A stretch of 64,000 nt of DNA from an uncultured Bacteroidia bacterium (GCA_902778855.1 CACYZM010000001.1:5838-69837); one strand, 5' to 3'. Positions 1-37,134 are shown, counted from the first letter of the stretch. The notes: generated from the letters alone by a model not told the origin. Program-made: numbers and translations.

Positions 1-560
1 TTTTCCTTGACGAACTGATAATCGGCCTCCTGCTTCTGTGCACGGATTTCATCCGCCTGCTTTTCCAGACGGGCGGATTCTTCGGCATCAGCCTCCCCGG
101 AGCGAAGACGGTCATAGATGGCCATGATCTGATCGCTCAGTCGTTCTTCTTGTTCGGCATTCTGCTGGACCAGGTCGTTGGCCGGAGTACCCGATACGCG
201 GGTCTTATGGTCCGCATCAGTAACTACGCTGATTTTGGCTCCGGGTTCGATGACGACCGTCGCGTGGCCGGCAAGATTGCCGCCGGTCAGGTCACCGACA
301 TAGATCGTACAGTAATCGGGGTCGGACACCTTGCCCGAGAACGTGTATTTTCCTTCCTGAACCAAGGTCGAATCCATCGGCATGGACTGCGTCGGATCCG
401 CGACCAAGTCGGAGATGTTGAAGCTGGCTACCTTATAAACTTTCGCCCCTTCCAGGGAAGGGTCTTCCACGACGCCTTCAATCGTGTAACTGTTCCCGCC
501 GCAGGCGGAAACAAGCAGGGCGGCCCCCAGGGCCGCCGCTACGAGTAAGAGATTTCTCAT
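1..560 (-). CDS. DUF4369-type lipoprotein, probable TlpA-like thiol:disulfide oxidoreductase (5' complete; 3' end runs off the window)
   Basis: Absent from the ORF track because no stop lies in the window. Reverse-strand ATG at 558-560 reads MRNLLLVAAALGAALLVSACGGNSYTIEGVVEDPSLEGAKVYKV... It has a lipobox (LVSAC) and the same N-terminal pattern as the neighbouring 575-1747 protein. Confidence 0.6.
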   Translation of the reverse strand, partial: MRNLLLVAAALGAALLVSACGGNSYTIEGVVEDPSLEGAKVYKVASFNISDLVADPTQSMPMDSTLVQEGKYTFSGKVSDPDYCTIYVGDLTGGNLAGHATVVIEPGAKISVVTDADHKTRVSGTPANDLVQQNAEQEERLSDQIMAIYDRLRSGEADAEESARLEKQADEIRAQKQEADYQFVKE

Positions 561-574
561 ATAGAAGATTTTGA

Positions 575-1747
575 TTAGTCAAGTAATTCAGCGAGTTTGG
601 CTTCCAATTCCTCGTGTTCCATCTTGCCGATGACCTTGCCTTCCTTATCCAGCAGGAAGTAGGAAGGGATGTAGTGGACGCCATAGAGCAGGCCGACGCG
701 GGCCGGCCGGTTCTCTACCGGGAATTCGTCCACCACGTGGATCCAGGGGGTCTGGTCCTGGGCGATGGCGTTTTTCCAGGCATTGTGGTCGGTATCGTCG
801 GAAACGCCGATGATCTCGAGGCCCTTGGGATGATACTTCTTGTAAAGTTCCTTCATGGCAGGCATACCGGCACGGCAAGGCTTGCACCAGGAGGCCCAGA
901 AGTCCACGATGACATACTGGCCGCGAAGCGACGAGAGGGTCACGGGATTGCCGTCCGGATCGTTGAGCGTGAAATCCGGAGCCTCGGCGCCGGGCTGCGT
1001 CGCCTTGCGGGCGGCGAGCTCTTCGCGGGCTTCCGCAGCCAGGAAACTGTTGCGGACTTTTTCGCTGTACTGATTGAAGGCTTCTTCGAATTCTTCCGTG
1101 GTGGCATCGTTGTAATAGCGGTTGAACAAATAGGCAGCGGCCTCGACATCCGGATTCCCGGCGATGACCTTTTTCGTCTCTTCTTCGAGGGCATCGTAAT
1201 AGGCCGGCAGTTGCTCGGCGAACTTACTCTGGATTTCAGCCTGTTTCTGCTGATAGGCGGCCATGTCGGCATAGCCCATCGACTCCACTTCCTCGATGGC
1301 GGCAGCCAGTTCCTTGAGTTCAGGGCGCTGGGCAATGACCGTACGGACATTCTGCATCTGATTCGCGAACTCGTTGTTCGGGCCGCCAGTCGTCGTGACA
1401 TCCGAAAGGAACTTACCGCCGTAGCGGGCATAGTCGATCACCTTGTCCAGGTTGACATTCATCGTCAACGGGCAGTTTTCGACATAGACATTGGCGCGCA
1501 GGGGGTCCTCACCGGCCGGAAGCAGGGAGACGGAGCCGATCACCACATCGGGCACCGAGCCCTTGAAGGTGAACTTGCCTTTGTTCATCGCCACCGTGTC
1601 GCTGAAGGGCGTACCATCGGGCAATGTATAGGCAAGAACGGCTTTGCCGTCCAATTCGCCGGCCTGGCCCTTGATGACATAACCGGGCTCTTTCGTGCAG
1701 GCGCTGAGGGCCGCGACGGCCACGATGATTGCGAGTATTTTTTTCAT
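575..1747 (-). CDS. TlpA-like thiol:disulfide oxidoreductase lipoprotein (DUF4369 N-domain + thioredoxin fold)
   Basis: Signal peptide and lipobox (AALSAC). C-terminal thioredoxin motif DFWASWCKPCRAGMP followed by IIGVSDD. ATG confirmed at 1745-1747. Confidence 0.85.
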   Translation of the reverse strand: MKKILAIIVAVAALSACTKEPGYVIKGQAGELDGKAVLAYTLPDGTPFSDTVAMNKGKFTFKGSVPDVVIGSVSLLPAGEDPLRANVYVENCPLTMNVNLDKVIDYARYGGKFLSDVTTTGGPNNEFANQMQNVRTVIAQRPELKELAAAIEEVESMGYADMAAYQQKQAEIQSKFAEQLPAYYDALEEETKKVIAGNPDVEAAAYLFNRYYNDATTEEFEEAFNQYSEKVRNSFLAAEAREELAARKATQPGAEAPDFTLNDPDGNPVTLSSLRGQYVIVDFWASWCKPCRAGMPAMKELYKKYHPKGLEIIGVSDDTDHNAWKNAIAQDQTPWIHVVDEFPVENRPARVGLLYGVHYIPSYFLLDKEGKVIGKMEHEELEAKLAELLD

Positions 1748-1753
1748 GATGTG

Positions 1754-3718
1754 TTACAGTTTTACGGTAAAGGTTTTGGTTTCGGGCACCAGGCAGGTGT
1801 TGTTGTTGCAGCACTGGTACGTGACCGTGACTTTGGCTTCGCCTTCGCCTTGGCCCTGGATGGACTGGCGGAATTCGCCGGTACCGCGATAGACGGTCGT
1901 ACCGGAGGCGTCGAGCAGGCTGGCTTCGGGAAGGTAGAGCGGGCCGACCTTCTCATATCCGGCGGGGAGCTCGATCTCGACGGTCGTCACCACGAAAACC
2001 TCGTCGGCCGGCACCACGGCGTAGGTATGGTAGCCCGGATGGATCTTCTGGAAGACTACGATGTCCTTGCCTTTGTCGGTATTGACAGCCCTGGCCTGGA
2101 GATACACAGGGTTGCGGTCATCGGTCAGCGAGGCCGACGCATCATTCCCGCGACGGCGGGAATCCTTGCCCAGCATATAGGCCTCTTCCTCCTCGGCGAG
2201 GCGGACACGGTAGTCGTTGCCCGGCACGTTTTCAAAGGTATTGACCAGCCACAGATAGCCGCCGTTCTCGGTAAAGAAGAGTTTGTCGTGGTAACGGTTG
2301 TACCAGTCGCGCCATTCTTTCGCCGTTTCGAAGCGGCAGAGCGTGTAGCGTTTCAGGACGGTCTCGGCGATGTCCTTTTCCGGATCGTTCTTCTCGAGCA
2401 TCGAGATGCACTTGTCGAGGATGCGGATGTCGTTGTTCGGAATGCCCAGATAGCGGACTTCGTCGTCGATGGCCAGTTCGTAGGAACCATTGGGGCACCA
2501 GAACCAGCCGTAGTTCTTGTCATAGAAGTCCTGATACGCCTTCTCGTCAGTGCCGAACACGGCATAGAGGCCCTTGCCGCGGTCATTTTGCATCAGGAAT
2601 TCCCGGTAGGTGAGCATCTTCTGCTCGGGGAAGTTTTCGTAGATGGCCATATTGGGATCGACCTTCTCGCCACGCGCCTTCTGGTCTTTGATGACGGCCT
2701 TCAGACTGTCGACCATCCGGTTGAAATCCGCATTGGACTTGTTGTAGGCTTCCCACATCGAACGGCTCATCCGGTTGCGCTCCATCCCGATATGGTCGCG
2801 GGTGGAAACGCCGTCGTTGAATTTCCGGGCGATGGGATGCTGTCCGGCAAACTGCTTCATATAGACCACGGCATTGACGAAGAGGGCCTTGGCGGTCTCG
2901 GTCATATAGGTCGGCGAAGCCGAGAAGCCCCAGGTAAACCAGTTGGCGTGGCGGCCAAGGGCCACGGCGTCGATGCTCTTGGCGCATTTGCCGCCGCTGA
3001 TGACTTCGGCTTCCGGCGAATCGGTGTAGCCGCCCGGGCGGGAGACCATACCGATGCGGTAGTCGCGGTTCTGCTCGTAATTCATCGTCTGCATCCGGAA
3101 CATCTCGGTCTCGGCAGGCAGGGGCTCACCCATCATTTCCGCGATTTCAGCAGCTGCGGGGGGCGTGGGCTGCATCGAGGTTTCGATGGTGACTTTCACC
3201 GGGCCCTGGAAAATGGGATGCGAGGCATTCCAGCCGAGGGCCATGTCTTCCAGGCAGAGGCAGTACCAGTCGTTCTTCGTGCCGATGCGACGGCCCATCT
3301 CTTCCCCGGCCTCGGCAATGGTAATCACCGGGCGGCTGAAGTCGAGCGGGAAGTACTGCGGACGCGCATAACGGACCATTCGGCCGTGATCGTCGACGTC
3401 GCGGATCCCCGGCGCGATGGGCGCCGGCGTGCCGTCAAGGATGGTCACGTCGTAGTAGTCGGACATCGAATAGTGATAGTCCTTGGCGTCGATGACCTTG
3501 ACGGTCTTGAAATTCTTTTTGAGGAATTTCTCAAACGCCGCGGTGCGCTCCGCCGCACTCTTGGCGACGACGGCCGGGTCGGGTTTCTCCGCCAGGCCAA
3601 AGGTCTCGATTTCAGGCGAGCCGCCCACATAGAGCACGCTCACCGCCTGCTTTTTCTGGGCGTGGAGGCCCAGAAAACAGCAGAGCAGCAGGGAAAGGGT
3701 CAGAAAGAACCTTTTCAT
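1754..3718 (-). CDS. exported protein of unknown function with a C-terminal nDsbD-like (DsbD alpha / DsbC-type) redox domain
   Basis: Signal peptide MKRFFLTLSLLLCCFLGLHAQ. The last ~100 aa (IHPGYHTYAV...VTVTYQCCNNNTCLVPE) match the nDsbD pattern seen in the DsbD at 9400-11421 (VTVEWQACNDENCIPP). I recognise no motif in the first ~530 aa. Confidence 0.75.
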   Translation of the reverse strand: MKRFFLTLSLLLCCFLGLHAQKKQAVSVLYVGGSPEIETFGLAEKPDPAVVAKSAAERTAAFEKFLKKNFKTVKVIDAKDYHYSMSDYYDVTILDGTPAPIAPGIRDVDDHGRMVRYARPQYFPLDFSRPVITIAEAGEEMGRRIGTKNDWYCLCLEDMALGWNASHPIFQGPVKVTIETSMQPTPPAAAEIAEMMGEPLPAETEMFRMQTMNYEQNRDYRIGMVSRPGGYTDSPEAEVISGGKCAKSIDAVALGRHANWFTWGFSASPTYMTETAKALFVNAVVYMKQFAGQHPIARKFNDGVSTRDHIGMERNRMSRSMWEAYNKSNADFNRMVDSLKAVIKDQKARGEKVDPNMAIYENFPEQKMLTYREFLMQNDRGKGLYAVFGTDEKAYQDFYDKNYGWFWCPNGSYELAIDDEVRYLGIPNNDIRILDKCISMLEKNDPEKDIAETVLKRYTLCRFETAKEWRDWYNRYHDKLFFTENGGYLWLVNTFENVPGNDYRVRLAEEEEAYMLGKDSRRRGNDASASLTDDRNPVYLQARAVNTDKGKDIVVFQKIHPGYHTYAVVPADEVFVVTTVEIELPAGYEKVGPLYLPEASLLDASGTTVYRGTGEFRQSIQGQGEGEAKVTVTYQCCNNNTCLVPETKTFTVKL

Positions 3719-3727
3719 AAAAGTTGA

Positions 3728-5158
3728 TTACAGATTGTTCGGTTTGATGTTCGGATTGTTGCTGATCGCGTTCTTCGGGAACGGGAAGATCCACATCTTG
3801 GAATCGGGCGCCAGCGTATAGGTATTGCCAGCCAGTTCGCGGGTGAAGGTCTCCTTCATATCGTCGAGCTGGTTCCAGCGCTTGCGGAAGATAAAGTTGT
3901 ACGGAGTGTACACGAATTCGCTGTGCTCCACTTGCTTCAGGTGGGCGATTGCCTCGGCTTTCGTCGACACGTTGCCCTGCAGCGGGGCGTACATCGCGGG
4001 CTCCACGCGCTTTACGCGGACGGCGTCGAGATACTTCATGGCTTCGCTGAAATTACCCTTGCGGATTTCGCACTCGGCGATGGTCAGGTACATATGCGGC
4101 GTCTTCAGGCCATACGTATTCCAGCTGGAGTTCAGGTCGAAGGTCATGAAACAGGGAACGCCGGTCATCATTTCGCCGCCCATCATATAGTCGTACATCA
4201 TATCCATGCTGGCCATACGGGAATAGGTGGCATAGCCCGGTTCGAAGCGGGCGATGCCTTCCTGGCTGACGGCTTCGTAGAAAATGATGTCATAGGTGTG
4301 GAAATAGTCTTCCTCCTGCTCGAGTTTGGCCAAGTACAGGGAAGGATACTGCCCGCCGATGATGTAGCCCGTCGTGATGACGGTATGCGCGGCATCCAGA
4401 TAATCGGAGACGGTGCTGTTGATGTCGAGCGCCTGCTTGGCGACGGTCTCGGCCTCGTCGAACTTCTGCATGGCCATCAGCGCCAGGGCCTTGACGGCGT
4501 ACGGGCAGGCTTTGCTCATACGCATCCGGTTGACATTGTTCAGCGGGAGGGCGTTCAGCGCGATGGCGGCGTCGCAGTCGGCGATGATCTGGTCGTAGAC
4601 CGCGGCGACCGTCCAGATTTCAGTGGGCTCGGAGATGTCCCAGTCTTCCAGCAGGATGGGAATGCCCGGCGTGTTGGCGGCGGTAGCCGGATTGTAGGCG
4701 GCCGCGAACTTGTTGACCAGGATGTACTCGGCCCAGGCGCGGAGGGTATAAGCCTCAGCCTTGAGCTGGTTCTTCTTGGCTTCGTCACCTGTGGCATCGG
4801 CCACGCGGCTCAGAATCGGGTTGGCAACCCGGCCGATGAAACCGTACATCGTGGAATAATCGCCGTCGCTGGCGGTCAGGTCGTTGAAGGTCTCGATCTT
4901 GGACTCGTCCCAGGTCAGCATGATGGTATAGCGCGACGGGGTCGGCGAAGCCAGTTCGTTGGGGATGTTGGCATAGCTGATCATATCGCCGCACATCCGT
5001 TTCATATCCGAAGTAGGACCTTCGAACTCGGCGTTGAGCAGGAGTTCCAGCTCTTCGGTGGTCGAAAGCAGGTTCTTGCCTTTGGGCTGCAGTTCGGTGA
5101 ACTCGGCGCAGGAGGCCAGCAGCAGGCAGGTGGTCAGGATAACAAATATCTTTTTCAT
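3728..5158 (-). CDS. susD: SusD/RagB-family outer-membrane lipoprotein
   Basis: Lipoprotein signal (LLLASC) and TPR-like helical sequence typical of SusD. It lies 12 nt downstream of the SusC gene. Confidence 0.85.
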   Translation of the reverse strand: MKKIFVILTTCLLLASCAEFTELQPKGKNLLSTTEELELLLNAEFEGPTSDMKRMCGDMISYANIPNELASPTPSRYTIMLTWDESKIETFNDLTASDGDYSTMYGFIGRVANPILSRVADATGDEAKKNQLKAEAYTLRAWAEYILVNKFAAAYNPATAANTPGIPILLEDWDISEPTEIWTVAAVYDQIIADCDAAIALNALPLNNVNRMRMSKACPYAVKALALMAMQKFDEAETVAKQALDINSTVSDYLDAAHTVITTGYIIGGQYPSLYLAKLEQEEDYFHTYDIIFYEAVSQEGIARFEPGYATYSRMASMDMMYDYMMGGEMMTGVPCFMTFDLNSSWNTYGLKTPHMYLTIAECEIRKGNFSEAMKYLDAVRVKRVEPAMYAPLQGNVSTKAEAIAHLKQVEHSEFVYTPYNFIFRKRWNQLDDMKETFTRELAGNTYTLAPDSKMWIFPFPKNAISNNPNIKPNNL

Positions 5159-5170
5159 GGCGCGGATGTC

Positions 5171-8100
5171 TTAGAAGTTGATGTGAAGACCGAAGATATA
5201 GGAGCTGCGCTGCGGGATGCCGAGGGTCTCGGGATCGAAGCGGACGCCCTTCTCATAGTACGGGATGTCGCGACCCGGGTTGAAAGCCGTCCAGAGCGCC
5301 GGAATGTTGTCGACCTGGAACTGCAGGTTCACGCGGGAAGCGCCGATCTTGCGGGCCCAGTTTTCGGGCAGTTCATAACCCAGCACGATGTTGCGGATCT
5401 TCAGGAAGGCCGCGTTACGGACGGAGATATCGCTGTATTTGCACTCGGGGCCGATGGAGCTTGAGGAATACCGGCCGATACCCGGGGTGTCGGTCTTGTG
5501 CTCGGGAGTCCAGGCATTGAGGAAGTAGCTGGGAACCGCTTGCCCCTGTGCCACGCCGAAAGTCTCATTCTCATTCAGCGCCCGCATCACGTGTCCGCCG
5601 TAGTAGGCCATCAGGATGCTCAGGCTCAAACCGTTCCAGGTGAAGCGGTTGTCGAGGCCGGCAATCACGACAGGCTCTGCCTGTCCGGAATACGCCATCG
5701 TTTCGACGCTGCCGCTTTGGGCGCTGTGCGTCTTGCGGTCGTTGTCGGAATACCAGAGGGTCTGGCCTTTTTCGCCATCGGCTTCACTGATGCCGGCAAA
5801 GCGCCAGCTCCACAGGGCGCTGGTCGGATAACCGACCCGGTACGGGTTGGAGAGCAATTCATAAGCCCGGGTGGAGGCATTCTCCACATTGGTGATCTTG
5901 TTCTTGTTGACGGCGAAGGTCAGGGTGCTGCTCCAACCGAAATCGCTGCGGCGGCGTTCGCGGATCCAGTCGCCCGTGAAGGTGAGTTCCACACCGTTGT
6001 TGACCATATCGGCCACGTTCATGAACATCGAGGTGAAACCGGTGGTCGGGTCAAGGGTCTTGTAGGAGAAGAGGTCCTTGCCGACCTTGCGGTAATAGTC
6101 GAGGGAACCGCGGAACCGGTTCTCCACGAACGAGAAATCGAGACCGACGTTGCTGGTCAGGGTCCGTTCCCATTTGAGGTTCGGGTTGGCCGGGCTCTGG
6201 ATGACGCCGAACGGTTCGTTGGTATAGTAGTTCAGGCCCGTGCTGGTAGCGGTCATATAGCTGGTGGCTCCCTGGTAGATGTTACCGGTGACACCGTAGC
6301 TGAGACGAAGCTTGAGGGCGTTGATCCAGTTGACGCCGCGCAGGAAGCTTTCATTGTTGATGTTCCAGGCCACACCGGCCGACCAGAGCGGACGGCCGCG
6401 GAGTTTCACGTTCAGACCGTACACGTCGGCATAGTCCTTACGGACGGAGCCGAAGACATTGTACTTTTCGTCGTACGTATAGGTGAAGTTCGCATAACCG
6501 GAAGCATAGCGGTGATGGTCCTCGACCACCGGGCTCATATTATCGGCGATATACGGCTCATAAGCGAACTGGATGGCCGGGAAGCCGCCGCCGAGCGCCA
6601 TATAGCTGTTGCTGTAGCGCATCTGGCTGATGGTGGAGAAGTCAATGGTCTGCGTCGAGGCGTTCTGCAGCTGGTCGTCATAGCCGAGCATCAGGGCGCT
6701 GGTACCGGAATACAGCGTCTCGCGGAATTCCATACCGGCCAGGGCCACGATTTCGTGCTTGCCGAACGTGCCGGCATAGTTGAGCTGGCCGCGGGCGGTC
6801 CAGTAACGGCCGTCCACGTTCTGGGCGGCGCGGAAACCGCCGGCAGCAGGCGTGATGTGCGTCACATTGCCGTAAGGGTCGATTTCGGTATAGGCATTGT
6901 AGATCGTCTTGGCAGCCTGGCTTTCCTGCGTAGCGTACCAATCAGCCGTGCGGTGATCAGTTTCATAAACGAACTGCGCATTGGCCGTCAGGCCTTTGAC
7001 AATCTTGAAAAGAAGGTCGCCGTGATAGCGCATATACTGGCGCTTGGTATTGATCACGTTGTTGTAGTACTCGTCCACCAGGTTGATGCCGGTTTCCTTG
7101 AAGTAACCGCCTTCCGTATTGTCGCGGTACTGGTTGCCGTTAAACCAGGTATAGAGCAGTTTGGCGGAACCGTCGTTGTTGTAGAGGCTCTCATAGGCCG
7201 GATAGTTCCACGGGCTGTCGAAGCCGTTGTAAGTATAGCCTTTCGCCCGCTGATTGCCGTAGATGCCGTTGACGGCCACGGTAGCGGTCAGCCATTTGGT
7301 GACATCATAGGAACCTTTGTAGCTGATCTGCATCTGCCGGTCGAAGGAGTTGATGACCCCCTGGTTGTCATTGCGCCAGTTGACGACGAAATTGCTCTGG
7401 AAACGGTCGGAGCGGCTGCGCAGGGCCAGGTTGTACTGCTGCATCAGCTGACGGCGATAGACCGCGTCGGCATACTGCTGCGCGAAATTGTTCTTCGAGA
7501 GCTGGTTGCAAAGCTGGTCGATCTCAGCCTGGGTGCCTTCGCCGATGAACATCCGGTAGTAGGCGTAATCGATGGGCGAAACGTAGCCGGTTCCGGCCAG
7601 CAGGTTCTGTTCCATCGTCTGGGCCGGATTGGTAACCTCGCCTTCATTGTGGAAATAATAGTAGTCGTAGTAGTTTTTCTCCAGCGCAATCTGCTGCTCG
7701 GCATTCATATAGAAGTTGCGCGCATAGTCCATGTCATGTTTGGAGAAGACCGTGACGTTGGAGGAGAAGTCCACGTCGATCTTGCCCTTTTCGCGGGCGC
7801 TCTTGGTCGTGATGACGATGATACCGTTGGAAGCGCGGGCACCGTAGATAGCCGCGGCGGCCGCGTCTTTCAGCACGTTGATGCTCTCGATGTCGTAGGG
7901 GTTCAAGTCATCGATGGAGCCTTCCATCGGCAGGCCGTCCACCACGAGGAGCGGATTGGCTTCGGCGTACATGGAGCTGACGCCACGGATGGTGAGTTTG
8001 CCGCCGTAGGTCGACAGACCGGCCACGCGGCCTTCGAGGTTCTGCATCAGGCTCGGCGTGTAGCGCTCTTCGATGGTCTTGGAATTGACCGTGGCGATGG

Positions 8101-8743
8101 CGCCGGTCACTTTCTTCTGCTGGATTTCCTGATAACCGGTCACCACCGCGCCCTCGATGAACATGCGGCTGTAGCTCATCTGCACGTCGAAGGTGCTGCG
8201 ACCGTTAAGCGGTTCGGTCACCGTGTCCATACCGAGGAAAGTCACCTCGATGGTGCTGTTGCGCGGATCCTTGACGGCCAGGGTGTAATTACCGTTGACG
8301 TCGGTGATGGCGTAGGTCTTTTCGGTCAGGTTCTGGATGGCGGCGCCGGCGACCGGCATGCCGTCCTGGTCGGTGATGCGGCCTTTGAGCATCACGGCCC
8401 CGCGACCGGACTGACCCTGCTGCTGGGCCGTCGTGGCGGCCGGCGAGAGGGCGATCTGTTTGTCAAGAATCTTGTAGTTGATGTTCAACGGTTTGAGCAT
8501 CTGGTCGAGAACGGCGGTCAGGCCGGCGTTCTGGACGTGGATGGTGACCGGTTTGTCGGCACCGACCTGCTGGTCGTTGTAGACAAACGTGTAGTCCACC
8601 TGCTTCTGGATCTCGTTCAGGACGGTCTTCAAGGGCGTCCTGTCGAAGTTCAGCGTGATGTTCTGTGCGGAGGCCAGCTGCGCGGAACCGAGCAGCAGCA
8701 CAAGCGCCAGCGACATCATCTTGAGGAAGTGTTTGACTGACAT
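5171..8743 (-). CDS. susC: SusC/RagA-family TonB-dependent receptor with N-terminal STN signalling domain
   Basis: 1190 aa with a signal peptide. Domains: STN (NITLNFDRTPLKTVLNEIQKQVDYTFVY), carboxypeptidase-regulatory-like (LKGRITDQDGMPVAGA), plug and barrel. The C-terminal end ...FGLHINF is typical of TonB-dependent receptors. Confidence 0.9.
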   Translation of the reverse strand: MSVKHFLKMMSLALVLLLGSAQLASAQNITLNFDRTPLKTVLNEIQKQVDYTFVYNDQQVGADKPVTIHVQNAGLTAVLDQMLKPLNINYKILDKQIALSPAATTAQQQGQSGRGAVMLKGRITDQDGMPVAGAAIQNLTEKTYAITDVNGNYTLAVKDPRNSTIEVTFLGMDTVTEPLNGRSTFDVQMSYSRMFIEGAVVTGYQEIQQKKVTGAIATVNSKTIEERYTPSLMQNLEGRVAGLSTYGGKLTIRGVSSMYAEANPLLVVDGLPMEGSIDDLNPYDIESINVLKDAAAAAIYGARASNGIIVITTKSAREKGKIDVDFSSNVTVFSKHDMDYARNFYMNAEQQIALEKNYYDYYYFHNEGEVTNPAQTMEQNLLAGTGYVSPIDYAYYRMFIGEGTQAEIDQLCNQLSKNNFAQQYADAVYRRQLMQQYNLALRSRSDRFQSNFVVNWRNDNQGVINSFDRQMQISYKGSYDVTKWLTATVAVNGIYGNQRAKGYTYNGFDSPWNYPAYESLYNNDGSAKLLYTWFNGNQYRDNTEGGYFKETGINLVDEYYNNVINTKRQYMRYHGDLLFKIVKGLTANAQFVYETDHRTADWYATQESQAAKTIYNAYTEIDPYGNVTHITPAAGGFRAAQNVDGRYWTARGQLNYAGTFGKHEIVALAGMEFRETLYSGTSALMLGYDDQLQNASTQTIDFSTISQMRYSNSYMALGGGFPAIQFAYEPYIADNMSPVVEDHHRYASGYANFTYTYDEKYNVFGSVRKDYADVYGLNVKLRGRPLWSAGVAWNINNESFLRGVNWINALKLRLSYGVTGNIYQGATSYMTATSTGLNYYTNEPFGVIQSPANPNLKWERTLTSNVGLDFSFVENRFRGSLDYYRKVGKDLFSYKTLDPTTGFTSMFMNVADMVNNGVELTFTGDWIRERRRSDFGWSSTLTFAVNKNKITNVENASTRAYELLSNPYRVGYPTSALWSWRFAGISEADGEKGQTLWYSDNDRKTHSAQSGSVETMAYSGQAEPVVIAGLDNRFTWNGLSLSILMAYYGGHVMRALNENETFGVAQGQAVPSYFLNAWTPEHKTDTPGIGRYSSSSIGPECKYSDISVRNAAFLKIRNIVLGYELPENWARKIGASRVNLQFQVDNIPALWTAFNPGRDIPYYEKGVRFDPETLGIPQRSSYIFGLHINF

Positions 8744-8753
8744 AGGTAGAAAA

Positions 8754-8794
8754 CTGTATTAGGTTAAAAATAGATTTCCTATTGATAATACAGA
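8754..8794 (-). promoter_or_regulatory. inverted repeat in the susC upstream/leader region
   Basis: CTGTATTA (8754-8761) and TAATACAG (8787-8794) are separated by 25 nt. The arms extend to ~12 nt with one mismatch. The repeat lies 11-51 nt upstream of the susC ATG. Confidence 0.35.
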
Positions 8795-8813
8795 TTTTCC
8801 ACACGCTCCCCTC

Positions 8814-8853
8814 AAAAAAAACGCGAGGCCGACGCATCACGCGCAGGCCCCGC
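8814..8853 (-). terminator. rho-independent terminator after the dsbD-trx operon
   Basis: The minus-strand RNA has stem GCGGGGCC...GGCCUCGC (one G-U pair) followed by 8 U (plus-strand A-run 8814-8821). It separates the Trx gene from susC. Confidence 0.65.
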
Positions 8854-8895
8854 ATTTCCTAATAACCAAATAACTTTTTTAATCTATTATATCGT

Positions 8896-9375
8896 CTAGT
8901 TAAGAACGGTATCCAAATAGGAGTAGAAGGCGGGATCTTCGCCCAAGATGATCTTGTCGATCTTTCCCTGGGGATCGATGATGATCTTCGTGGGAAAACC
9001 CTGAACCTGATAGACCTTGACCAGGTCGTTGTCAGCGGGGTTCAGGACGCTGATCCAGGGGAGTTCGTATTTCGCCGTGGCGGCTTTCCATTTCTCCTCA
9101 GTGTCGCGGCAGGCGACGCCGACGAATTCGACTTTGCCCTTGTGCTTGGCGTAGGCTTGCTTCATATCGGGGAAACCCTTGATGCACCATTTGCACCAGC
9201 TGCCCCAGAAATCAAGCACCACGTATTTTCCCTGGAGCGAGGAAAGGGTGAAGGTCGTCCCATCGACCTTTTTGGCAGTAAAATCGGGGGCCTGGACACC
9301 GGCGCGGATGTCCTGGGCGAAGCCGGCGCAGGAGAGTCCGGCGAGCAACAGGCAGCAAAGGAAAAATTTCTTCAT
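8896..9375 (-). CDS. thioredoxin-fold (TlpA/ResA-like) thiol:disulfide oxidoreductase
   Basis: DFWGSWCKWCIKGFPDM motif. The ORF-track start at 9396 is TTG. The ATG at 9373-9375 gives MKKFFLCCLLLAGLSCAGFA (signal/lipobox). Confidence 0.85.
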   Translation of the reverse strand: MKKFFLCCLLLAGLSCAGFAQDIRAGVQAPDFTAKKVDGTTFTLSSLQGKYVVLDFWGSWCKWCIKGFPDMKQAYAKHKGKVEFVGVACRDTEEKWKAATAKYELPWISVLNPADNDLVKVYQVQGFPTKIIIDPQGKIDKIILGEDPAFYSYLDTVLN

Positions 9376-9399
9376 AACGGAATAGCGTTCAAACAAATA

Positions 9400-11421
9400 T
9401 TATTCCAATCCCTTCTCCAGGAAGGTCACATATTCGTCCACGTCGAGATTGTAGCTGCGGGCCGGCACTTTGTTCTTTTCAGTGACCGGATCGAGGATCA
9501 CATAGTAGGGCTGGGCATTCACGTGATAACGCTTCATCATAAAGTATGAGTTGATCTTGCCCAGGCTCTTGAGCACCTTGCCGTCCTCGGTCGTGACCCA
9601 GTCTTTCTCGTCGAGCACTTTCTTGTCGTCACCGAAGAGCGAGCAGACCACATAGTCGTTCTTCATCATCTTCAGGACGCGGGGATCACTCCAGACGCGC
9701 GACTCCATTTCCCGGCAGTTCACGCAGCCGTGGCCGGTGAAGTCGAGCAGGACGGGCTTGCCGACCTTGGCGGCGTAGGCGCGGGCTTCCTCATAGTCGA
9801 AGAAGGCGGGAATGTCATAGGGCATATGCAGGAAATCGGCATATTTGCGGTGGGTCGGGATTCCGTTTTCGTCTTCCTGCGGCGTCTGGCCGACCACATA
9901 GGTTGTCCCGCCCCCGCCATGTTGGTTCGGGTCCAGCACGAAGTCCTGCGTGGTGATGGGCGGCAGATAGCCCGAGAGGGCCTTCAGCGGCGCACCCCAC
10001 ATACCCGGAATCATATAGACGACAAAGGTGAATACCACGATGACCAGGATCAGGCGGAAGACGCTCAGATGTTCGACCGGCGAGTCGTAGGCGAAACGGA
10101 TCTTGCCCAGCAGGTAGAGGCCCAGGAGGAAGAACACCACGATCCAGATGGCCAGATAGACCTCACGGTCGAGCAGGCCCCAGTGGTAGGTCTGGTCGGC
10201 AACGCTCAGGAACTTGAAGCCCAGCGCCACCTCGACGAAACCGAGCACCACCTTCACGCTGTTGAGCCAGCCGCCGCTCTTCGGGAGTTTGTCGAGCAGG
10301 CTCGGGGCGAAGGCCAGGAGCGTGAACGGCAGGGCGAAGGCGATCGAAAAGGCCAGCATCGTGATGATCGGCTCCCAGAACTGGCCCTGGGTACTCTTGA
10401 TCAGCACCGAGCCCACGATCGGACCCGTGCAGGAGAACGACACCAGCACGAGGGTCAGCGCGACGAAGAAGACGCCGCCCAGGCCGCCCTTGTTGGATTT
10501 CGCATCCGACTTGTTGAGCCAGGAACTCGGCAGCGTGATTTCGAAAGCGCCGAAGAACGAGGCCGCGAAGAGCATGAAGATCAGGAAGAAGATGATATTC
10601 GGAAGCCAGTGCGTGGCCAGCCAGTTGAAGATGTCGGCCGTCACGGCTTCGCCGCCGGCGAAGTACGTGATCAGAATGATGACGGCGATGGGGATGGTAT
10701 AGAGACCTACGATCGAGAGGCCGAAGATCGTGGCGAGCCACTTGCCGCGGCCTTTCTTCTTCTCCTCCCCTTCCGCGACCTGGTTCTGCTTCAGGAAGAA
10801 GCTGACGGTCATCGGAATCATCGGGAACACGCAAGGCGTCAGGAGCGCCACGAAACCCCAGGCGATGGCCTCGAGGATCAGGCCCCAGATGGACTTGCCT
10901 TCACCGGGCGCGGTCGCATTCGGATCCGGTTCGGGTTCCGCCGGTGCGAGAACCGGGAGGCCGGCGCCGCCCGGCAGGGTCACATCGACCGTGAAATCAT
11001 CCGGCGGAATGCAGTTCTCGTCGTTGCAGGCCTGCCATTCCACCGTCACGGGAACCGTGACTTCATTTCCCTGGAGAAGTTCCACCTTCTGGCAGATGAC
11101 CACCGGGCTGACGCAGGTGCCGATCTCGATGCCGAAGACATCGTCGAAACCTTTGTGTACCTCGGAAGCGATGTACGGGTCGCCGAGCAGTTTCACCTTG
11201 TCGCCGGCGTCGACCGTGAAGATCGTGCCGTTGGGGCCGCTGGAGCCGTAGTCGGTCAGGTCGTAGATGTGCCAGTTGCCGGCGATCGTGCCGGTCGCGC
11301 GGATCTCATAGGTGTTGCCTTCCACCTGGACGGCTTCGGCCTTCCAGGAGACGGGCTGCTGTTGCGCAAAAGCGGGAACAGCAAGCAGCAGGGTCAGGAT
11401 CAGAAGTCTGAAGGATCTCAT
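9400..11421 (-). CDS. dsbD: thiol:disulfide interchange protein DsbD (nDsbD + CcdA-like membrane core + C-terminal thioredoxin)
   Basis: N-terminal WQACNDENCIPP, multiple TM helices with the LTPCVFPMIP motif, and C-terminal FTGHGCVNCREME. The track start at 11451 is TTG; the ATG at 11419-11421 gives MRSFRLLILTLLLAVPAFA. Confidence 0.85.
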   Translation of the reverse strand: MRSFRLLILTLLLAVPAFAQQQPVSWKAEAVQVEGNTYEIRATGTIAGNWHIYDLTDYGSSGPNGTIFTVDAGDKVKLLGDPYIASEVHKGFDDVFGIEIGTCVSPVVICQKVELLQGNEVTVPVTVEWQACNDENCIPPDDFTVDVTLPGGAGLPVLAPAEPEPDPNATAPGEGKSIWGLILEAIAWGFVALLTPCVFPMIPMTVSFFLKQNQVAEGEEKKKGRGKWLATIFGLSIVGLYTIPIAVIILITYFAGGEAVTADIFNWLATHWLPNIIFFLIFMLFAASFFGAFEITLPSSWLNKSDAKSNKGGLGGVFFVALTLVLVSFSCTGPIVGSVLIKSTQGQFWEPIITMLAFSIAFALPFTLLAFAPSLLDKLPKSGGWLNSVKVVLGFVEVALGFKFLSVADQTYHWGLLDREVYLAIWIVVFFLLGLYLLGKIRFAYDSPVEHLSVFRLILVIVVFTFVVYMIPGMWGAPLKALSGYLPPITTQDFVLDPNQHGGGGTTYVVGQTPQEDENGIPTHRKYADFLHMPYDIPAFFDYEEARAYAAKVGKPVLLDFTGHGCVNCREMESRVWSDPRVLKMMKNDYVVCSLFGDDKKVLDEKDWVTTEDGKVLKSLGKINSYFMMKRYHVNAQPYYVILDPVTEKNKVPARSYNLDVDEYVTFLEKGLE

Positions 11422-11456
11422 GTATTGATTTGCTTTTGTTTTTCCGAACAATCTAT

Positions 11457-11464: not shown

Positions 11465-11522
11465 CAAATAATCGGCGGTTCCCCCTTTTTTTGTTTGCGA
11501 ATAATTGTCGTATCTTTACCTT

Positions 11523-12293
11523 ATGAATCATTTTTCCGTCTTCCTGCTCCTTTTTGTCTGCCTGGTGATCCCGCCGTTGGCGACGGCTCAGGAACACCGT
11601 TCCTATGATTGCTATCGCACCACCGGCCCGATCAGGATCGACGGGAAACTGAATGAGGCGGACTGGCAGGCGGCGCCCCTGTCCGAAGCTTTCGTGGATA
11701 TCCGCGGCATCGACTATCAGCCGGCGCCCGCCCAGGACACCTGGATGAAGATGCTTTGGGACGACGAGTGCCTGTATATCGCCGGCATCCTCCGGGAAAC
11801 CGATGTCACGGCTTCGCTCACCCAGCGCGACGCCATCATCTACCGCGACAACGACTTTGAGGTCTTCATCGACCCCGAGGGCGACGGCAAAGCCTACTTC
11901 GAGTTCGAGTGCAACGCCTTCGGCACCCTGATGGACCTGCTGATGGACCGGCCCTATTTCCGCGGCGGCAGTTTCTTCCTCCCCTGGGACTGCCGGGGCG
12001 TCCGCCTGAAAGTCCACGTGGACGGGAAGATCAACGACAACCGGCGGCCCGATCTGGGCTGGACCGTGGAGATGGCCATCCCCTTCGCCTCCCTCGCCTA
12101 CGGCTCCGCCAATCCTAAGTCTTTCCCGGTGTGGCGGATCAACTTCTCCCGCGTGCAGTGGGTGGTCAAGGAGGGCCCCGAAGAAAACTGGGTATGGAAT
12201 CCCACCGGCAAAGTGAACATGCACATGCCGGAAAACTGGGGTTACCTGAAACTCATCGACGAACCTGTCCGCGCAGCCGCTGCAAGCCGGTAA
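11523..12293 (+). CDS. carbohydrate-binding family 9 (CBM9/DOMON-like) protein
   Basis: Signal peptide, then YRTTGPIRIDGKLNEADWQAAP...WDDECLYIAG...DNDFEVFIDPEGDGKAYFEFECNAFGT, typical of CBM9-like proteins. The track start is TTG; ATG at 11523. Confidence 0.7.
   Translation: MNHFSVFLLLFVCLVIPPLATAQEHRSYDCYRTTGPIRIDGKLNEADWQAAPLSEAFVDIRGIDYQPAPAQDTWMKMLWDDECLYIAGILRETDVTASLTQRDAIIYRDNDFEVFIDPEGDGKAYFEFECNAFGTLMDLLMDRPYFRGGSFFLPWDCRGVRLKVHVDGKINDNRRPDLGWTVEMAIPFASLAYGSANPKSFPVWRINFSRVQWVVKEGPEENWVWNPTGKVNMHMPENWGYLKLIDEPVRAAAASR

Positions 12294-32162: not shown

Positions 32163-32170
<8 letters not shown>
31667..32170 (+). CDS. atpH: F0F1 ATP synthase subunit delta (OSCP)
   Basis: [11 protein letters not shown]-terminal OSCP motif. 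The ATG at 31667 is preferred over the GTG at 31661. Confidence 0.8.
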
Positions 32171-33752
<1,582 letters not shown>

Positions 33753-33754
33753 CC

Positions 33755-34633
33755 ATGGCATCGCTCAAGGAGACAAAGACCCGGATCGCATCGGTCAAGA
33801 GCACGCTGCAGATCACCTCGGCCATGAAGATGGTCGCGGCGGCCAAGCTGCACCGCGCCCAGCAGGCCATTGCGGGCATGGCTCCCTACCAGGACAAACT
33901 CCACGAGATCCTGCACGACCTGCTCACCGACGGCAGCGTGCGCGCCGCGGCCGACACGCCGCTGCTCGCGGGCAACGAGAGCAAGCGCGTGGCCGTGGTG
34001 GCCTTCTCCTCCAACAGTTCGCTCTGCGGCGGCTTCAACGCCACCGCCGTCAAATCGCTCCTCACCGAACTGGAATCCCTGCGGAAACAGGGGCTCGATC
34101 CCGAAAAGGATGTCGATTTCTGGCCGGTCGGCCGGAAAGTGGCCGAAGCCGGCCGGAAAGTGGGCCTGAAAGCCCGCCGCGACTCCTCCGCAATGCTCGA
34201 CCATCCCGCCTACGACCCGGCGGCCGAACTGGCCGCGCAACTGATCGAGAGTTTCACGCAAGGTGAGATCGGTTCCGTGGTAATTCTCTACAACCACTAT
34301 AAATCCAACGCCGCCCAACCGCCGGTCCGCGAGGCTTACCTGCCGTACAGCCTCCCGCAGGAGGACGGGGCGGCCGTCGATGAGGAACTCATCGTCGAAC
34401 CCGGCCGACGGGAAGTGCTCGAGGCGCTCCTCCCGAAGGTCCTGTTGCTGAAAATCTACACCGTGCTGCTCGATAGCTGCGCCGCCGAGCACGCCGCCCG
34501 CACCGTCGCCATGCAACTGGCCAGCGACAATGCCGACGAGCTCCTCGAGCAACTCACGCTCGAGTACAACAAGCGCCGCCAGCAGGCCATCACCAGCGAG
34601 CTTCTCGACATCGTCGGCGGCAGCATGAGCTAA
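33755..34633 (+). CDS. atpG: F0F1 ATP synthase subunit gamma
   Basis: MASLKETKTRIASVKSTLQITSAMKMVAAAKL N-terminus and C-terminal ITSELLDIVGG. Confidence 0.9.
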   Translation: MASLKETKTRIASVKSTLQITSAMKMVAAAKLHRAQQAIAGMAPYQDKLHEILHDLLTDGSVRAAADTPLLAGNESKRVAVVAFSSNSSLCGGFNATAVKSLLTELESLRKQGLDPEKDVDFWPVGRKVAEAGRKVGLKARRDSSAMLDHPAYDPAAELAAQLIESFTQGEIGSVVILYNHYKSNAAQPPVREAYLPYSLPQEDGAAVDEELIVEPGRREVLEALLPKVLLLKIYTVLLDSCAAEHAARTVAMQLASDNADELLEQLTLEYNKRRQQAITSELLDIVGGSMS

Positions 34634-34647
34634 TAAAAAACCGCTCC

Positions 34648-35745
34648 ATGAAAAGATTCTTTTACGCATTCGTCGTCCTGCTGCTTGCCGCCGCCTGCGG
34701 CCAGGACAAATTCGTCGTCAAAGGCACCGTCGCCGAAGGCGAGACTTTCCCCGAAAACGCCCTCGTCTGTCTGTACGACGGCGACAATCTGCTCGACAGC
34801 TGCGCCGTGGTCGACGGCGCCTTCACCCTCAAGGGCCCGGCCAATCCGGAGAAACTCTACCGTATTTCGGCCAAATACGACCGCCCGCAGCGCGACCGCT
34901 CCTGGAACTTCGGCGTGATCCCCGAAAAGGGCACTTTCCCCGTAACCTTCGCCAAGAACGCCCTCGACTGCACCATCGACTCGCAGGTCAACCGCGACTT
35001 CCTGGATTTCAACCTGAAGATGCAGGATGTCGCCAAAGAATACCGCGATCGATTCATGGCCCTCGAGGATAAGTCCGAAGAAGCCGTCGACGCCCTGATG
35101 GACGACATCAACGGCAAGATGAAGGCACTGAGCCTCGACGCCATCGGCAAGAACGCCAACAATTACATCGCCAAGAACGCCCTCCAGAACATCATCTACG
35201 ACCTGCCGCTCGACGAACTCAAGGAGATCATCGGCAAGTGCGGCAAATTCGTGGGCGAAGACGAAGGCATCTCCCGCATCGTCCGCAGCAAGGAAGCCGA
35301 ACTCGAGACCGCCGAAGGCAAGCCTTTCGTCGACTTCGCCGGCAAGACCCCCGACGGCGCCGACATCAAGCTCTCCGACTATGTGGGCAAGGGCAAATGG
35401 GTGCTTACCGATTTCTGGGCGTCCTGGTGCGGCCCGTGCATGGGCGAGATCCCCAACATCAAGAAGGTCTTTGAAACCTTCGAAGGCGACGACTTCATGG
35501 TGCTCGGCGTAGCCGTCTGGGAACGTGACGGCGACAATACCGCCAGCGCCAAAAAGATGGAGGAGAAAGAGATGAAGTGGCACCAGATTTTCGTAGGAGA
35601 CGACAAAACTCCGACCGATTCCTACGGCATCGTCGGCATTCCGACCATGATCCTCTTCGCGCCCGACGGCACAATCTACAAGCGCGGCGAAGTGCTCCGC
35701 GGCGAATCGATGTACAAGACCGTGGCCGAGGCCCTCGGTAAATAA
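34648..35745 (+). CDS. TlpA-like thiol:disulfide oxidoreductase lipoprotein (DUF4369 + thioredoxin)
   Basis: Lipobox LLAAAC and motif DFWASWCGPCMGEIP. It starts 14 nt after the atpG stop. Confidence 0.85.
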   Translation: MKRFFYAFVVLLLAAACGQDKFVVKGTVAEGETFPENALVCLYDGDNLLDSCAVVDGAFTLKGPANPEKLYRISAKYDRPQRDRSWNFGVIPEKGTFPVTFAKNALDCTIDSQVNRDFLDFNLKMQDVAKEYRDRFMALEDKSEEAVDALMDDINGKMKALSLDAIGKNANNYIAKNALQNIIYDLPLDELKEIIGKCGKFVGEDEGISRIVRSKEAELETAEGKPFVDFAGKTPDGADIKLSDYVGKGKWVLTDFWASWCGPCMGEIPNIKKVFETFEGDDFMVLGVAVWERDGDNTASAKKMEEKEMKWHQIFVGDDKTPTDSYGIVGIPTMILFAPDGTIYKRGEVLRGESMYKTVAEALGK

Positions 35746-35754
35746 CCCGCAGCC

Positions 35755-37134
35755 ATGAAACGTTTCTGGATGATGATGGCCTGCGCACTTACCCTGGCCG
35801 GCTGTACGGACTACAAGGCCTACTACAACGGCGTGCTGGAGGAGATTTCCAGTGAACGCTACAACGGCCGCAGCGTGTACCACGACGGCGACGTGCGCGC
35901 CGCCAAGTATCTCATCGACCAGCTCGCTTCGATCGAGGGCATCGTGCCCTGCGAGGCGGCCGGCCCGGAAGACGCTTCGGTTCAGCCCTATAAGAAAAGC
36001 CTCGTGGAACCGGCCGATGCGGGCCGTTGGAATGCCGTGGAAGGCAAGGAGAAATATCTCCCCTACCTCCAGCACTTCCAGTTCCCGATGAACGTGATGC
36101 GCGGCGCGATGTCGCTCTCCGTCGACGGCGTGGCCTACGCCCCGACCTTCGACTTCATCGCCAAGGAGTTCTCACCCACCTGCCACGGCTTTTTCAAGGT
36201 CACCTATCTTGACGAAGAAGCCTACCACCGCGAGGGCTTTATGGAACACCTCAGCAGCGGGATGTACAAGGACCAGTTCGTGGTCATCGACTGGAACCGT
36301 TATCTGGAGACCGTCCAGCCCGATCCCTTCGACAAGTACAAGCCCTGGCTCACGGACCTCGAAAACATCGGCGGCATCATCCTCCGGCAGGAGGAGCAGT
36401 TCCCCTACTTCAAGGCCCGCACCTGGTACCAGAGCCCGCACCCGGTCCTGTTCGTGAACGGATCGTTCCCCAACGACGCCCGTGAGATCGAACTGCACAT
36501 CGACGCCGAGATGCTGCCCACCCGCGACGCCCACAACGTCGTGGCCTGGCTGCCCGGCACCGATCCGAACTGCGACACTTACTACACCTTCATCGCCCAC
36601 TACGACCATCTGGGTTATATGGGCGCCGACCAGGTGTTCCCGGGTGCCAACGACAACGGCTCCGGCTCCGCGATGGTGGTCACGCTGGCCAAATACTTCA
36701 GCAAGAACCGGCCGCGGCACGGCATCCAGTTCATTCTGGTCGACGCCGAGGAGGAAAACCTCCTGGGCTCGTTCTTCTACTGCGAGAATCCCCGTCTGCC
36801 GCTCGACAAACTCGAATACCTGATCGACCTCGATATGGTGGCCGATGACACCGACCACCTGTCCACGCAGATCACGCCGGGCGGCGAAGCCGGCCTGGAG
36901 CAGTTCCGCGCCATCAACGCCGACGGCAAATACCCGCCCTTCGACTTCGTGATGGAAGAGATGAACGACGACAGCGACCACTTCTCCTTCGCCCAGAAAG
37001 GCGTCCCCGGCATCTACCTCGAAACCGAAGGCAACATTATCCAATACTACCACACCCCCCGCGACAACTTCCAGAACACCCGCGATAGCAACTTCGACCG
37101 CCTGTTCCACCTGATCACGGAGTTCGTGAAATAA
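35755..37134 (+). CDS. M28-family metallopeptidase (aminopeptidase-like) lipoprotein
   Basis: Lipobox LTLAGC and M28 motifs AHYDHLG, GANDNGSGSAMV, VDAEEENLLGS. Confidence 0.85.
   Translation: MKRFWMMMACALTLAGCTDYKAYYNGVLEEISSERYNGRSVYHDGDVRAAKYLIDQLASIEGIVPCEAAGPEDASVQPYKKSLVEPADAGRWNAVEGKEKYLPYLQHFQFPMNVMRGAMSLSVDGVAYAPTFDFIAKEFSPTCHGFFKVTYLDEEAYHREGFMEHLSSGMYKDQFVVIDWNRYLETVQPDPFDKYKPWLTDLENIGGIILRQEEQFPYFKARTWYQSPHPVLFVNGSFPNDAREIELHIDAEMLPTRDAHNVVAWLPGTDPNCDTYYTFIAHYDHLGYMGADQVFPGANDNGSGSAMVVTLAKYFSKNRPRHGIQFILVDAEEENLLGSFFYCENPRLPLDKLEYLIDLDMVADDTDHLSTQITPGGEAGLEQFRAINADGKYPPFDFVMEEMNDDSDHFSFAQKGVPGIYLETEGNIIQYYHTPRDNFQNTRDSNFDRLFHLITEFVK

Follow-up and report, generated by a model that had tools for sequence, protein, structure and literature searches.

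A SusCD import locus of Bacteroidales conserved together with thiol-redox genes and an uncatalogued exported protein bearing an nDsbD domain

From positions 1-11421 of a 64,000-nt stretch of DNA from an uncultured Bacteroidia bacterium (GCA_902778855.1 CACYZM010000001.1:5838-69837; the whole stretch is referred to as the window), seven genes can be deduced, all on the minus strand, among which a SusC-type TonB-dependent transporter and its SusD lipoprotein are embedded in a set of thiol-redox genes (Table 1). Read in the direction of transcription, a gene pair encoding a DsbD-type electron transporter and a small exported protein with thioredoxin (Trx) fold is followed by an intrinsic terminator and then by the genes for SusC, SusD, an exported 654-aa protein here designated X654, and two lipoproteins combining DUF4369 with a TlpA-type Trx-fold domain, the successive spacings from susC onward being 12, 9, 6 and 14 nt. 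Gene list, order, strand and motifs had been described in an earlier note made from the sequence alone and proved accurate throughout when compared with open reading frames (ORFs) and with matches in Pfam and NCBIfam, and the gaps of 6-14 nt given there agree with the measured values.

Table 1. Features deduced in positions 1-11421 of the window.
Feature	Position	Strand	Size or gene call	Domains, motifs or basis
DsbD-type inner-membrane electron transporter	9400-11421	minus	673 aa from ATG; ORF continues to TTG at 11451	nDsbD, CcdA-like transmembrane core, C-terminal Trx-like domain
Small exported Trx-fold protein, ResA/TlpA type	8896-9375 (alternative end 9396)	minus	159 aa	WCKWC
Intrinsic terminator between dsbD-trx unit and susC operon	~8853-8814	minus		hairpin and T8
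Conserved blocks, possible susC promoter	8744-8812	minus		sequence conservation
STN-SusC TonB-dependent transporter	5171-8743	minus	1190 aa	TIGR04056, STN, Plug, barrel
SusD-family surface lipoprotein	3728-5158	minus	476 aa	SusD-like_3, SusD_RagB
X654, exported protein	1754-3718	minus	654 aa	DsbD_N at residues 547-652
DUF4369 + TlpA/ResA-type thioredoxin-fold lipoprotein	575-1747	minus	390 aa	WCKPC, lipobox LSAC
5' part of second DUF4369 + TlpA-type lipoprotein	1-560	minus		DUF4369 54 bits on partial product (3-560)

The SusC product scores 531.5 bits against TIGR04056 of NCBIfam (cut-off 368) and 39.7 bits against the STN domain of Pfam, and the SusD product 50.6 bits against SusD-like_3 and 24.7 bits against SusD_RagB (Pfam). 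With 12 nt between the two genes, the locus shows the adjacency of susC-like and susD-like genes by which a polysaccharide utilisation locus (PUL) is recognised. Co-localised carbohydrate-active enzymes (CAZymes), the other hallmark of a PUL, are missing: none of the window products of the locus matches a glycoside hydrolase, polysaccharide lyase, carbohydrate esterase, other lyase, sulfatase or peptidase family in Pfam or NCBIfam, and CAZyme or peptidase genes were found with Pfam in none of the operons examined, comprising the window operon, its continuation on a related contig and the relatives inspected. The earlier note's statement that no degradative enzyme is visible holds for CAZyme and peptidase families but may not extend to X654, the N-terminal ~500 residues of which are modelled as a well-folded, highly conserved, enzyme-like domain with an invariant CxC motif.

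The 390-aa lipoprotein encoded downstream of X654 matches AhpC-TSA with 83.5 bits and DUF4369 with 39 bits (Pfam), ResA and TlpA being its top matches in both NCBIfam and PDB, and the small Trx-fold protein matches AhpC-TSA (77 bits), Thioredoxin_8 (70 bits) and, best among NCBIfam entries and below its cut-off, ResA (92.8 bits). Generally, the Trx-fold proteins of the locus are matched by AhpC-TSA, Redoxin or Thioredoxin_8 and have ResA and TlpA as closest solved relatives. They carry WCKPC or WCKWC together with a lipobox or signal peptide, as is characteristic of exported Trx folds of the TlpA/ResA/CcmG type, and no NCBIfam equivalog cut-off is reached by the TlpA-type proteins. The first gene encodes a DsbD, as deduced from its three domains with one cysteine pair each, ACNDENC in nDsbD (C-x4-C), PC/SC in the transmembrane core and GCVNC in the Trx-like domain; the motifs EWQACNDENCIPP, LTPCVFPM, SFSCTGP and GHGCVNC can be read in the sequence. 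Pfam scores are 76 bits for DsbD_TM, 49 bits for Thioredoxin_7 and 20 bits, below the cut-off, for DsbD_N. Since the score against the NCBIfam DsbD model PRK00293 (112 bits) stays below the curated cut-off, the protein is regarded as a divergent member of the family. The gene is called with the same 673 aa in the identical contig L001.

The small Trx-fold gene is predicted to be co-transcribed with dsbD, and the strong terminator noticed previously between this pair and susC is real. It consists of a GC-rich hairpin (GCGGGGCC...GGCCTCGC) followed by T8, and hairpin and T-run are retained in four relatives (L004, L006, L012 and L007) with differing stem sequences; moreover, short conserved blocks lie between the terminator and the susC start. 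As the stem changes while hairpin and T-run are kept, and conserved blocks precede susC, the susC operon should possess its own promoter region.

Beyond position 1, the locus could be followed on two 177-kb metagenome contigs (L001 and L002) encoding an identical 654-aa protein. On both, the gene cut at the window edge encodes a 384-aa DUF4369-TlpA lipoprotein, in L001 also with an AhpC-TSA match of 67 bits over the full-length product, and is the final gene of the operon. A continuation into ordinary CAZymes or peptidases, named beforehand as the finding that would speak against a special role of the locus, does not occur: the operon ends with this TlpA gene, and none of these enzymes is encoded in the operon continuation on L001. 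Past the operon end follow convergent genes for a FecR-type anti-sigma factor (349 aa) and an extracytoplasmic function (ECF) sigma factor (192 aa), a pair which in most relatives is found upstream and co-directional. Such a FecR/ECF-sigma pair is the expected partner of an STN-bearing SusC and, together with the STN match, provides all elements of a TonB-dependent transporter with trans-envelope ECF-sigma/anti-sigma signalling.

The C-terminal part of X654 (residues ~535-654) is an nDsbD domain, matched by Pfam DsbD_N over residues 547-652 with 43 bits (cut-off 25; E 5.5e-11). Its fold corresponds to the nDsbD structures of E. coli and Neisseria (Foldseek E 8.6e-6; target-normalised TM-score 0.61-0.65, matches including 3pfu and 1jpe) and also to the N-domain of ScsB. 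In the profile alignment, YQCC...CLVPE of X654 is placed on YQGC..FCYPPE of E. coli, so that the catalytic pair C637/C642 within YQCCNNNTC corresponds to Cys103/Cys109, with an active-site spacing shorter by one residue. This cysteine pair is at least 90% conserved among 103 sequences. Fold and cysteine pair of nDsbD are consequently both present, and the second nDsbD-like domain which the earlier note had placed at the end of this protein is supported by Pfam, Foldseek and the active-site alignment. With the nDsbD of the DsbD encoded at the same locus, it has the C-x4-C spacing in common but is otherwise not a recent copy.

The remainder of X654 starts with a signal peptide of the signal peptidase I type and lacks a conserved lipobox, hence a soluble periplasmic protein is predicted. 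For residues 1-540, sequence searches in Pfam, NCBIfam and PDB gave no match; as far as these comparisons reach, X654 is an uncatalogued family. While a first structure model built from 20 sequences showed a predicted local distance difference test (pLDDT) value of 76 in the most conserved region and only nDsbD was recognised by fold, the AlphaFold model of the N-terminal region from a 103-sequence alignment reached a pLDDT of 93.2 and a predicted TM-score of 0.89. In this model, an alpha/beta domain (~24-290) is predicted to precede a helical domain (~300-500). Foldseek matches of the N-domain are weak to moderate (E 3e-4 to 1e-2) and belong to class I glutamine amidotransferase (GATase)-like and ThuA-like folds, with lin1909 (3fij) at the top; the others include the amidotransferase domains of GMP synthase and PabA and a Bacteroides ThuA-like protein (BACUNI_01602, 4jqs). 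A role as class I amidotransferase or C26 hydrolase was nevertheless discarded, as an elbow cysteine with its His-Glu triad was not recovered: at the position of the GATase nucleophile elbow after strand 131-134, located by sequence and secondary-structure order rather than by superposition, family members have E, N, S or D, and they lack the H-P-E motif. X654 is therefore not a classical amidotransferase and the similarity is one of fold only.

Located in the next predicted strand and present in every full-length member is C153-x-C155, in X654 itself within DWYCLCL and in the most distant relatives as LCQCL, YCHCL, ECVCL or GCWCL. Entries such as P0322, P0335-P0337, P0340, P0352 and similar ones start with 'MCL' at profile position 153 and are N-terminally truncated; an apparent subfamily beginning at this position was dismissed as gene-call truncation from a methionine inside a C-M-C motif. 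Also rejected was C461 (RYTLCRF) as a third redox cysteine, being conserved only within Bacteroidales and lost outside the core.

By exhaustive search with a hidden Markov model (HMM), 364 representative clusters of the X654 family were retrieved at E <=1e-30; at 90% identity the family comprises 445 clusters. Relatives were collected from 154 GTDB species genomes, and 80 loci were kept and labelled by tblastn with the window proteins. Nearly all of these belong to Bacteroidales (Segatella/Prevotella, Phocaeicola, Bacteroides, Muribaculaceae, Odoribacter, Alistipes, Dysgonomonadaceae and rumen lineages), whereas five carry other labels (Lachnospiraceae, Paenibacillus, Acutalibacteraceae, Waltera and 'bacterium') with the same gene content. 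Neighbours were counted in 42 species-level loci flanked on either side by 6 kb or more. Here, a same-strand SusC gene adjoins X654 in 41 cases, SusD and FecR are each found nearby in 34 (the former value being limited by sensitivity), a sigma factor in 24 and a TlpA/Trx gene in 28. Many families show the gene order sigma-FecR-SusC-SusD-(TlpA)-X654, Segatella copri the order FecR-X654-SusC-SusD-TlpA, and this difference argues for linkage under selection rather than inheritance by inertia. Synteny across Bacteroidales, suggested earlier as a check, is clearly conserved with respect to the SusC-X654 adjacency. The Trx-fold genes, postulated to be coupled to SusCD, are indeed not just sporadic companions (28 of 42), but it is X654, and not these genes, that constantly accompanies the importer. 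Between one and five DUF4369-TlpA lipoproteins usually complete the module, joined in some lineages by DsbD.

DsbD is found next to X654 in only six of the 42 fully flanked loci, restricted to the window's own clade and locus L010. In L010, the genes for sigma factor, FecR, DsbD, Trx, SusC, SusD, X654 and TlpA form an uninterrupted string, with ~20 nt and no terminator before susC. The proposed coupling of DsbD to SusCD is thus supported by L010, but it is lineage-specific, and in the window dsbD and trx form a unit of their own. The SusD proteins form part of a tightly conserved clade, in which over 120 clusters share at least 50% identity along their entire length; both members sampled sit in X654 loci, and the Segatella copri cluster alone holds 1773 member sequences. 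Genomes of S. copri vary in the DUF4369-TlpA gene after susD (L053, L056, L061 and L062 versus L054, L055 and L058), unrelated genes filling the site where it is missing.

Fused and split forms of X654 were recovered by the same kind of exhaustive HMM search. P0278 and P0267 represent DUF4369-TlpA-X654 as a single polypeptide, and in P0274 a DUF4369-like region and then a Trx domain are appended to X654 in one chain, hence the fusion exists in both orders. Neither signal peptide nor lipobox is present at these junctions, which excludes read-through artefacts. Fusion proteins sit in SusCD loci (L088 and L090). The accessory set of L088 (1-7833) is unlike the Bacteroidales module: the DUF4369-TlpA-X654 fusion comes after SusC, a distant SusD, a DUF4843 protein and a PKD_2 protein. 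As this SusD is only 23% identical, X654 is not tied to one SusD lineage outside Bacteroidales. Another unusual entry, P0373 (L092 3576-6671; 1031 aa), joins the C-terminal half of X654 including nDsbD to an SMP-30/gluconolactonase-like propeller and a BD-FAE esterase and may be either a fusion or an assembly or gene-call artefact.

Forms consisting of the N-domain only (~485-506 aa) had reductant genes as direct neighbours in each of the four cases inspected. Three TlpA genes adjoin in L089; a full X654, SusC, SusD and four or five TlpA genes are nearby in L093; Trx, TlpA and a stand-alone nDsbD are found in L094; and in L095 (8393-10518), as in L096 (1066-3191), a stand-alone gene for a 203-aa nDsbD overlaps the start of the N-domain-only gene. 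Hence, at least one module of periplasmic reductant goes with the N-domain in every instance, a co-occurrence which would be expected if it were a client or the terminal enzyme of a redox relay. L093 (1-16390) is the richest module seen, with sigma factor, FecR, full X654, SusC, SusD, the N-domain-only paralogue and then four TlpA-type genes, one encoding a 760-aa double DUF4369-Trx protein, followed by an unannotated 714-aa protein.

This conservation bears on the simplest alternative, an ordinary PUL whose enzymes are encoded elsewhere and whose thiol-redox genes are mere neighbours. Many predicted PULs are indeed devoid of CAZymes, and in the window dsbD and trx form a separate transcription unit. 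However, X654 stands beside SusC in 41 of 42 loci across families with rearranged gene order, TlpA and X654 are fused to single polypeptides, the gaps within the operon are only 6-14 nt and DsbD lies inside the operon in L010. A chance neighbourhood is accordingly a highly improbable explanation. Linkage kept across Bacteroidales families with shuffled order, together with the gene fusions, is far beyond chance, and functional coupling of SusCD to the thiol-redox set is strongly supported.

Hence, based on the observed gene content, linkage, fusions and folds and on the conservation of the three cysteine motifs, a sigma/anti-sigma-controlled SusCD importer can be proposed whose cargo would be handled by a DsbD-fed periplasmic thiol enzyme, X654, a proposal to which we assign about even chances. 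Ligand binding to SusD/SusC would be signalled via the STN domain to the anti-sigma factor, resulting in induction of the operon, and the ligand would be taken into the periplasm, where the CxC-bearing N-terminal domain of X654 might act on it. Electrons could be passed from cytoplasmic thioredoxin to the membrane core of DsbD and its C-terminal Trx domain and from there to nDsbD of X654, to the TlpA-type lipoproteins or to both, finally reaching the CxC site and the cargo, the cysteines of the N-terminal domain being kept reduced or recycled. This direction of electron flow is assumed by analogy with E. coli DsbD and with ScsB-TlpA-PprX of Caulobacter; likewise, the lipoproteins are presumably periplasmic, CxC is taken to be redox-active and the chemistry performed on the cargo to be a reduction. 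Candidate cargoes are disulfide-bonded peptides and low-molecular-weight disulfides such as cystine or glutathione disulfide.

Several observations weigh against this proposal. About one third of the loci are without a TlpA gene and consist only of sigma/FecR-SusC-SusD-X654, and 36 of the 42 have no DsbD nearby; there, the relay would depend on genes elsewhere. Even in the window, dsbD and trx form a transcription unit distinct from the susC operon, from which the conserved terminator divides them. In L095, where genes for MFS, PhyH, epimerase and SnoaL-like proteins and no SusCD are found in the neighbourhood, as also in L096, the pair of N-domain and nDsbD appears to work outside the SusCD context as well. 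The fold matches of the N-domain are weak, with query TM-scores of 0.2-0.26 and E-values no better than 3e-4, and the domain is without a detectable relative of known function. Furthermore, CxC is located in a predicted strand, a modelled geometry that would fit metal binding as well as a redox disulfide. Finally, among the conserved genes of the locus there is neither an inner-membrane transporter nor a gene of downstream catabolism that could account for the fate of the cargo.

The redox partners could equally recycle or protect cysteines of the N-domain, with a cargo that is not itself a disulfide. X654 might then be a non-reductive periplasmic enzyme or binding protein on a GATase1/ThuA-like scaffold, with a cysteine nucleophile for hydrolysis or transfer or with a cysteine metal site, while nDsbD and TlpA only guard and repair its thiols. 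Such a service is known from E. coli, where DsbD-DsbG protects the single catalytic cysteine of L,D-transpeptidases. Cysteine hydrolases are known among proteins of GATase1-like fold, and 3fij, the top match, is one of the class I GATase-like structures recovered; moreover, X654 contains many invariant charged residues resembling an active site. In the model, the C-x-C strand is predicted to expose both thiols on one face, and the close conservation of the SusD clade points to a single ligand of defined chemistry. The variable residue at the elbow position, as located by secondary-structure order, argues against this, as does the lack of any hydrolase family profile matching X654 in Pfam or NCBIfam; besides, up to five TlpA genes plus a built-in nDsbD, as in L093, would be a heavy outlay for mere maintenance in strict anaerobes. 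Therefore, we regard a non-reductive function as rather unlikely, albeit as the most serious competitor of a thiol-reducing X654.

Quite improbable, in our view, is a role of the module in envelope redox stress or metal homeostasis, in which repair of oxidised envelope proteins or the handling of a thiophilic metal would fall to the TlpA-type proteins and X654, and SusCD would import or sense the compound concerned. The hosts are strict gut and rumen anaerobes, the operons examined contain no peroxiredoxin, Msr, Sco or metal-binding family, and a dedicated, conserved SusD lipoprotein points to an external organic ligand. On the other hand, Cu(I) binding by CxC motifs is known from other proteins, metal uptake was the context in which FecIR-type signalling was originally described, and precedents exist in Scs (copper), TlpA-Sco and ScsB-TlpA-PprX. 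TlpA/ResA-type domains and DsbD-family relays perform such tasks elsewhere (PMC3322552; PDB relatives TlpA, Etrx and ResA).

Other genes in the surroundings were not assigned to the module. On L001 (15982-18714, opposite strand), just past window position 1 and co-directional with the sigma/FecR genes, tandem exported proteins of 453 and 454 aa with weak inosine-uridine nucleoside hydrolase domains are encoded; these two IU_nuc_hydro-like genes upstream of sigma/FecR were rejected as members of the system, being absent at that site in L004-L007 and displaced in L012. A few kb past the locus, a TonB-dependent receptor gene is followed by that of an XusB-family lipoprotein, a siderophore-type uptake pair (L001 18984-21965). 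Within the window, a gene for a 256-262-aa protein with CBM9-like domains (11505-12293, plus strand) lies between dsbD and an aminotransferase gene and has no visible tie to the locus. A further TlpA-type protein of 365 aa (DUF4369 and AhpC-TSA; 34648-35745, plus strand) is encoded directly 3' of ATP synthase alpha/gamma (32163-34633) and 5' of an M28 peptidase (35755-37134), with no SusCD pair adjoining.

The importer and the proposed relay can be compared with several known systems. Sus-like PULs under ECF-sigma/anti-sigma control, as in Bacteroides thetaiotaomicron, show the same susC/susD pair with STN on SusC, FecR and ECF sigma genes beside the operon and tight spacing, whereas the present locus and the relatives examined are without glycoside hydrolase, lyase, sulfatase or peptidase and have thiol-redox proteins and an uncatalogued family as accessories. 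Importers of non-polysaccharide cargo are represented by RagAB of Porphyromonas gingivalis, BtuG-BtuB (B12) and XusB (siderophores), which likewise combine a SusCD-type or lipoprotein-assisted TonB-dependent importer with an operon lacking degradative enzymes; unlike the present locus, none of these is known to have a reductive relay or an nDsbD-containing partner. With regard to the terminal step, the logic of the TlpA-X654 fusions matches that of Neisseria PilB (Trx-MsrA-MsrB) and pneumococcal Etrx1/2-MsrAB2, where an envelope enzyme has its own Trx-type reductant fed by DsbD/CcdA, although X654 is not an Msr and is a candidate enzyme only. The ThuA-like and class I GATase-like proteins (4jqs and 3fij) probably share the overall alpha/beta fold of X654 residues ~24-290, as modelled, but not sequence-level similarity or, in X654, a conserved catalytic-elbow cysteine; X654 alone has in addition a helical domain, the CxC motif and a fused nDsbD.

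For the redox part, E. coli DsbD (delivering to DsbC, DsbG and CcmG), ScsB-TlpA-PprX and ScsB-ScsC have the same three-domain DsbD with a cysteine pair in each domain and an Ig-like alpha domain as hub to Trx folds (PMC3322552). Stand-alone alpha domains and a relay from ScsB via TlpA to the peroxiredoxin PprX are documented (PMC3322552), hence TlpA-type intermediate carriers and stand-alone alpha domains are common to the DsbD/ScsB pathways and the present module. In contrast to these pathways, the second nDsbD is here fused to a non-Trx CxC domain and the set is embedded in an outer-membrane import operon; moreover, the clients are not the cytochromes, isomerases and peroxiredoxins served by DsbD/ScsB. 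No description of a SusCD locus coupled to TlpA, DsbD_N or DUF4369 proteins was found in full-text searches of PMC and bioRxiv, which leave most subscription journals outside, in agreement with the earlier note, whose author knew of no characterised example. Importer and relay are each familiar, while their conserved coupling and the X654 family are not.

Nutrients enter members of the dominant gut phylum mainly through SusCD systems, and almost all understood examples handle glycans. A conserved, regulated SusCD module built around a thiol-redox relay and an enzyme-like family would add a new functional class of Sus-like system, in which import across the outer membrane would be tied to reducing power from the cytoplasm. 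The module occurs in the highly prevalent Segatella copri and also in Muribaculaceae, Phocaeicola, Alistipes, Odoribacter and rumen lineages; through it, the great and so far unaccounted-for number of DUF4369-TlpA lipoproteins in Bacteroidota becomes more accessible to study, and the combination of CxC domain and nDsbD is a new domain partnership reaching past SusCD loci. The hypothesis lends itself to direct testing with available genetic tools and routine thiol trapping. In its boldest form, for which we see somewhat less than even chances, the module would provide the first TonB-dependent (SusCD) import route with cargo processed by a dedicated periplasmic reductase station powered from the cytoplasm through DsbD, in which X654 would represent a new class of terminal thiol reductase, with CxC on a GATase1-like scaffold, a built-in nDsbD as electron inlet and TlpA lipoproteins as carriers, and by which gut Bacteroidales including Segatella copri might harvest disulfide-locked host or dietary compounds.

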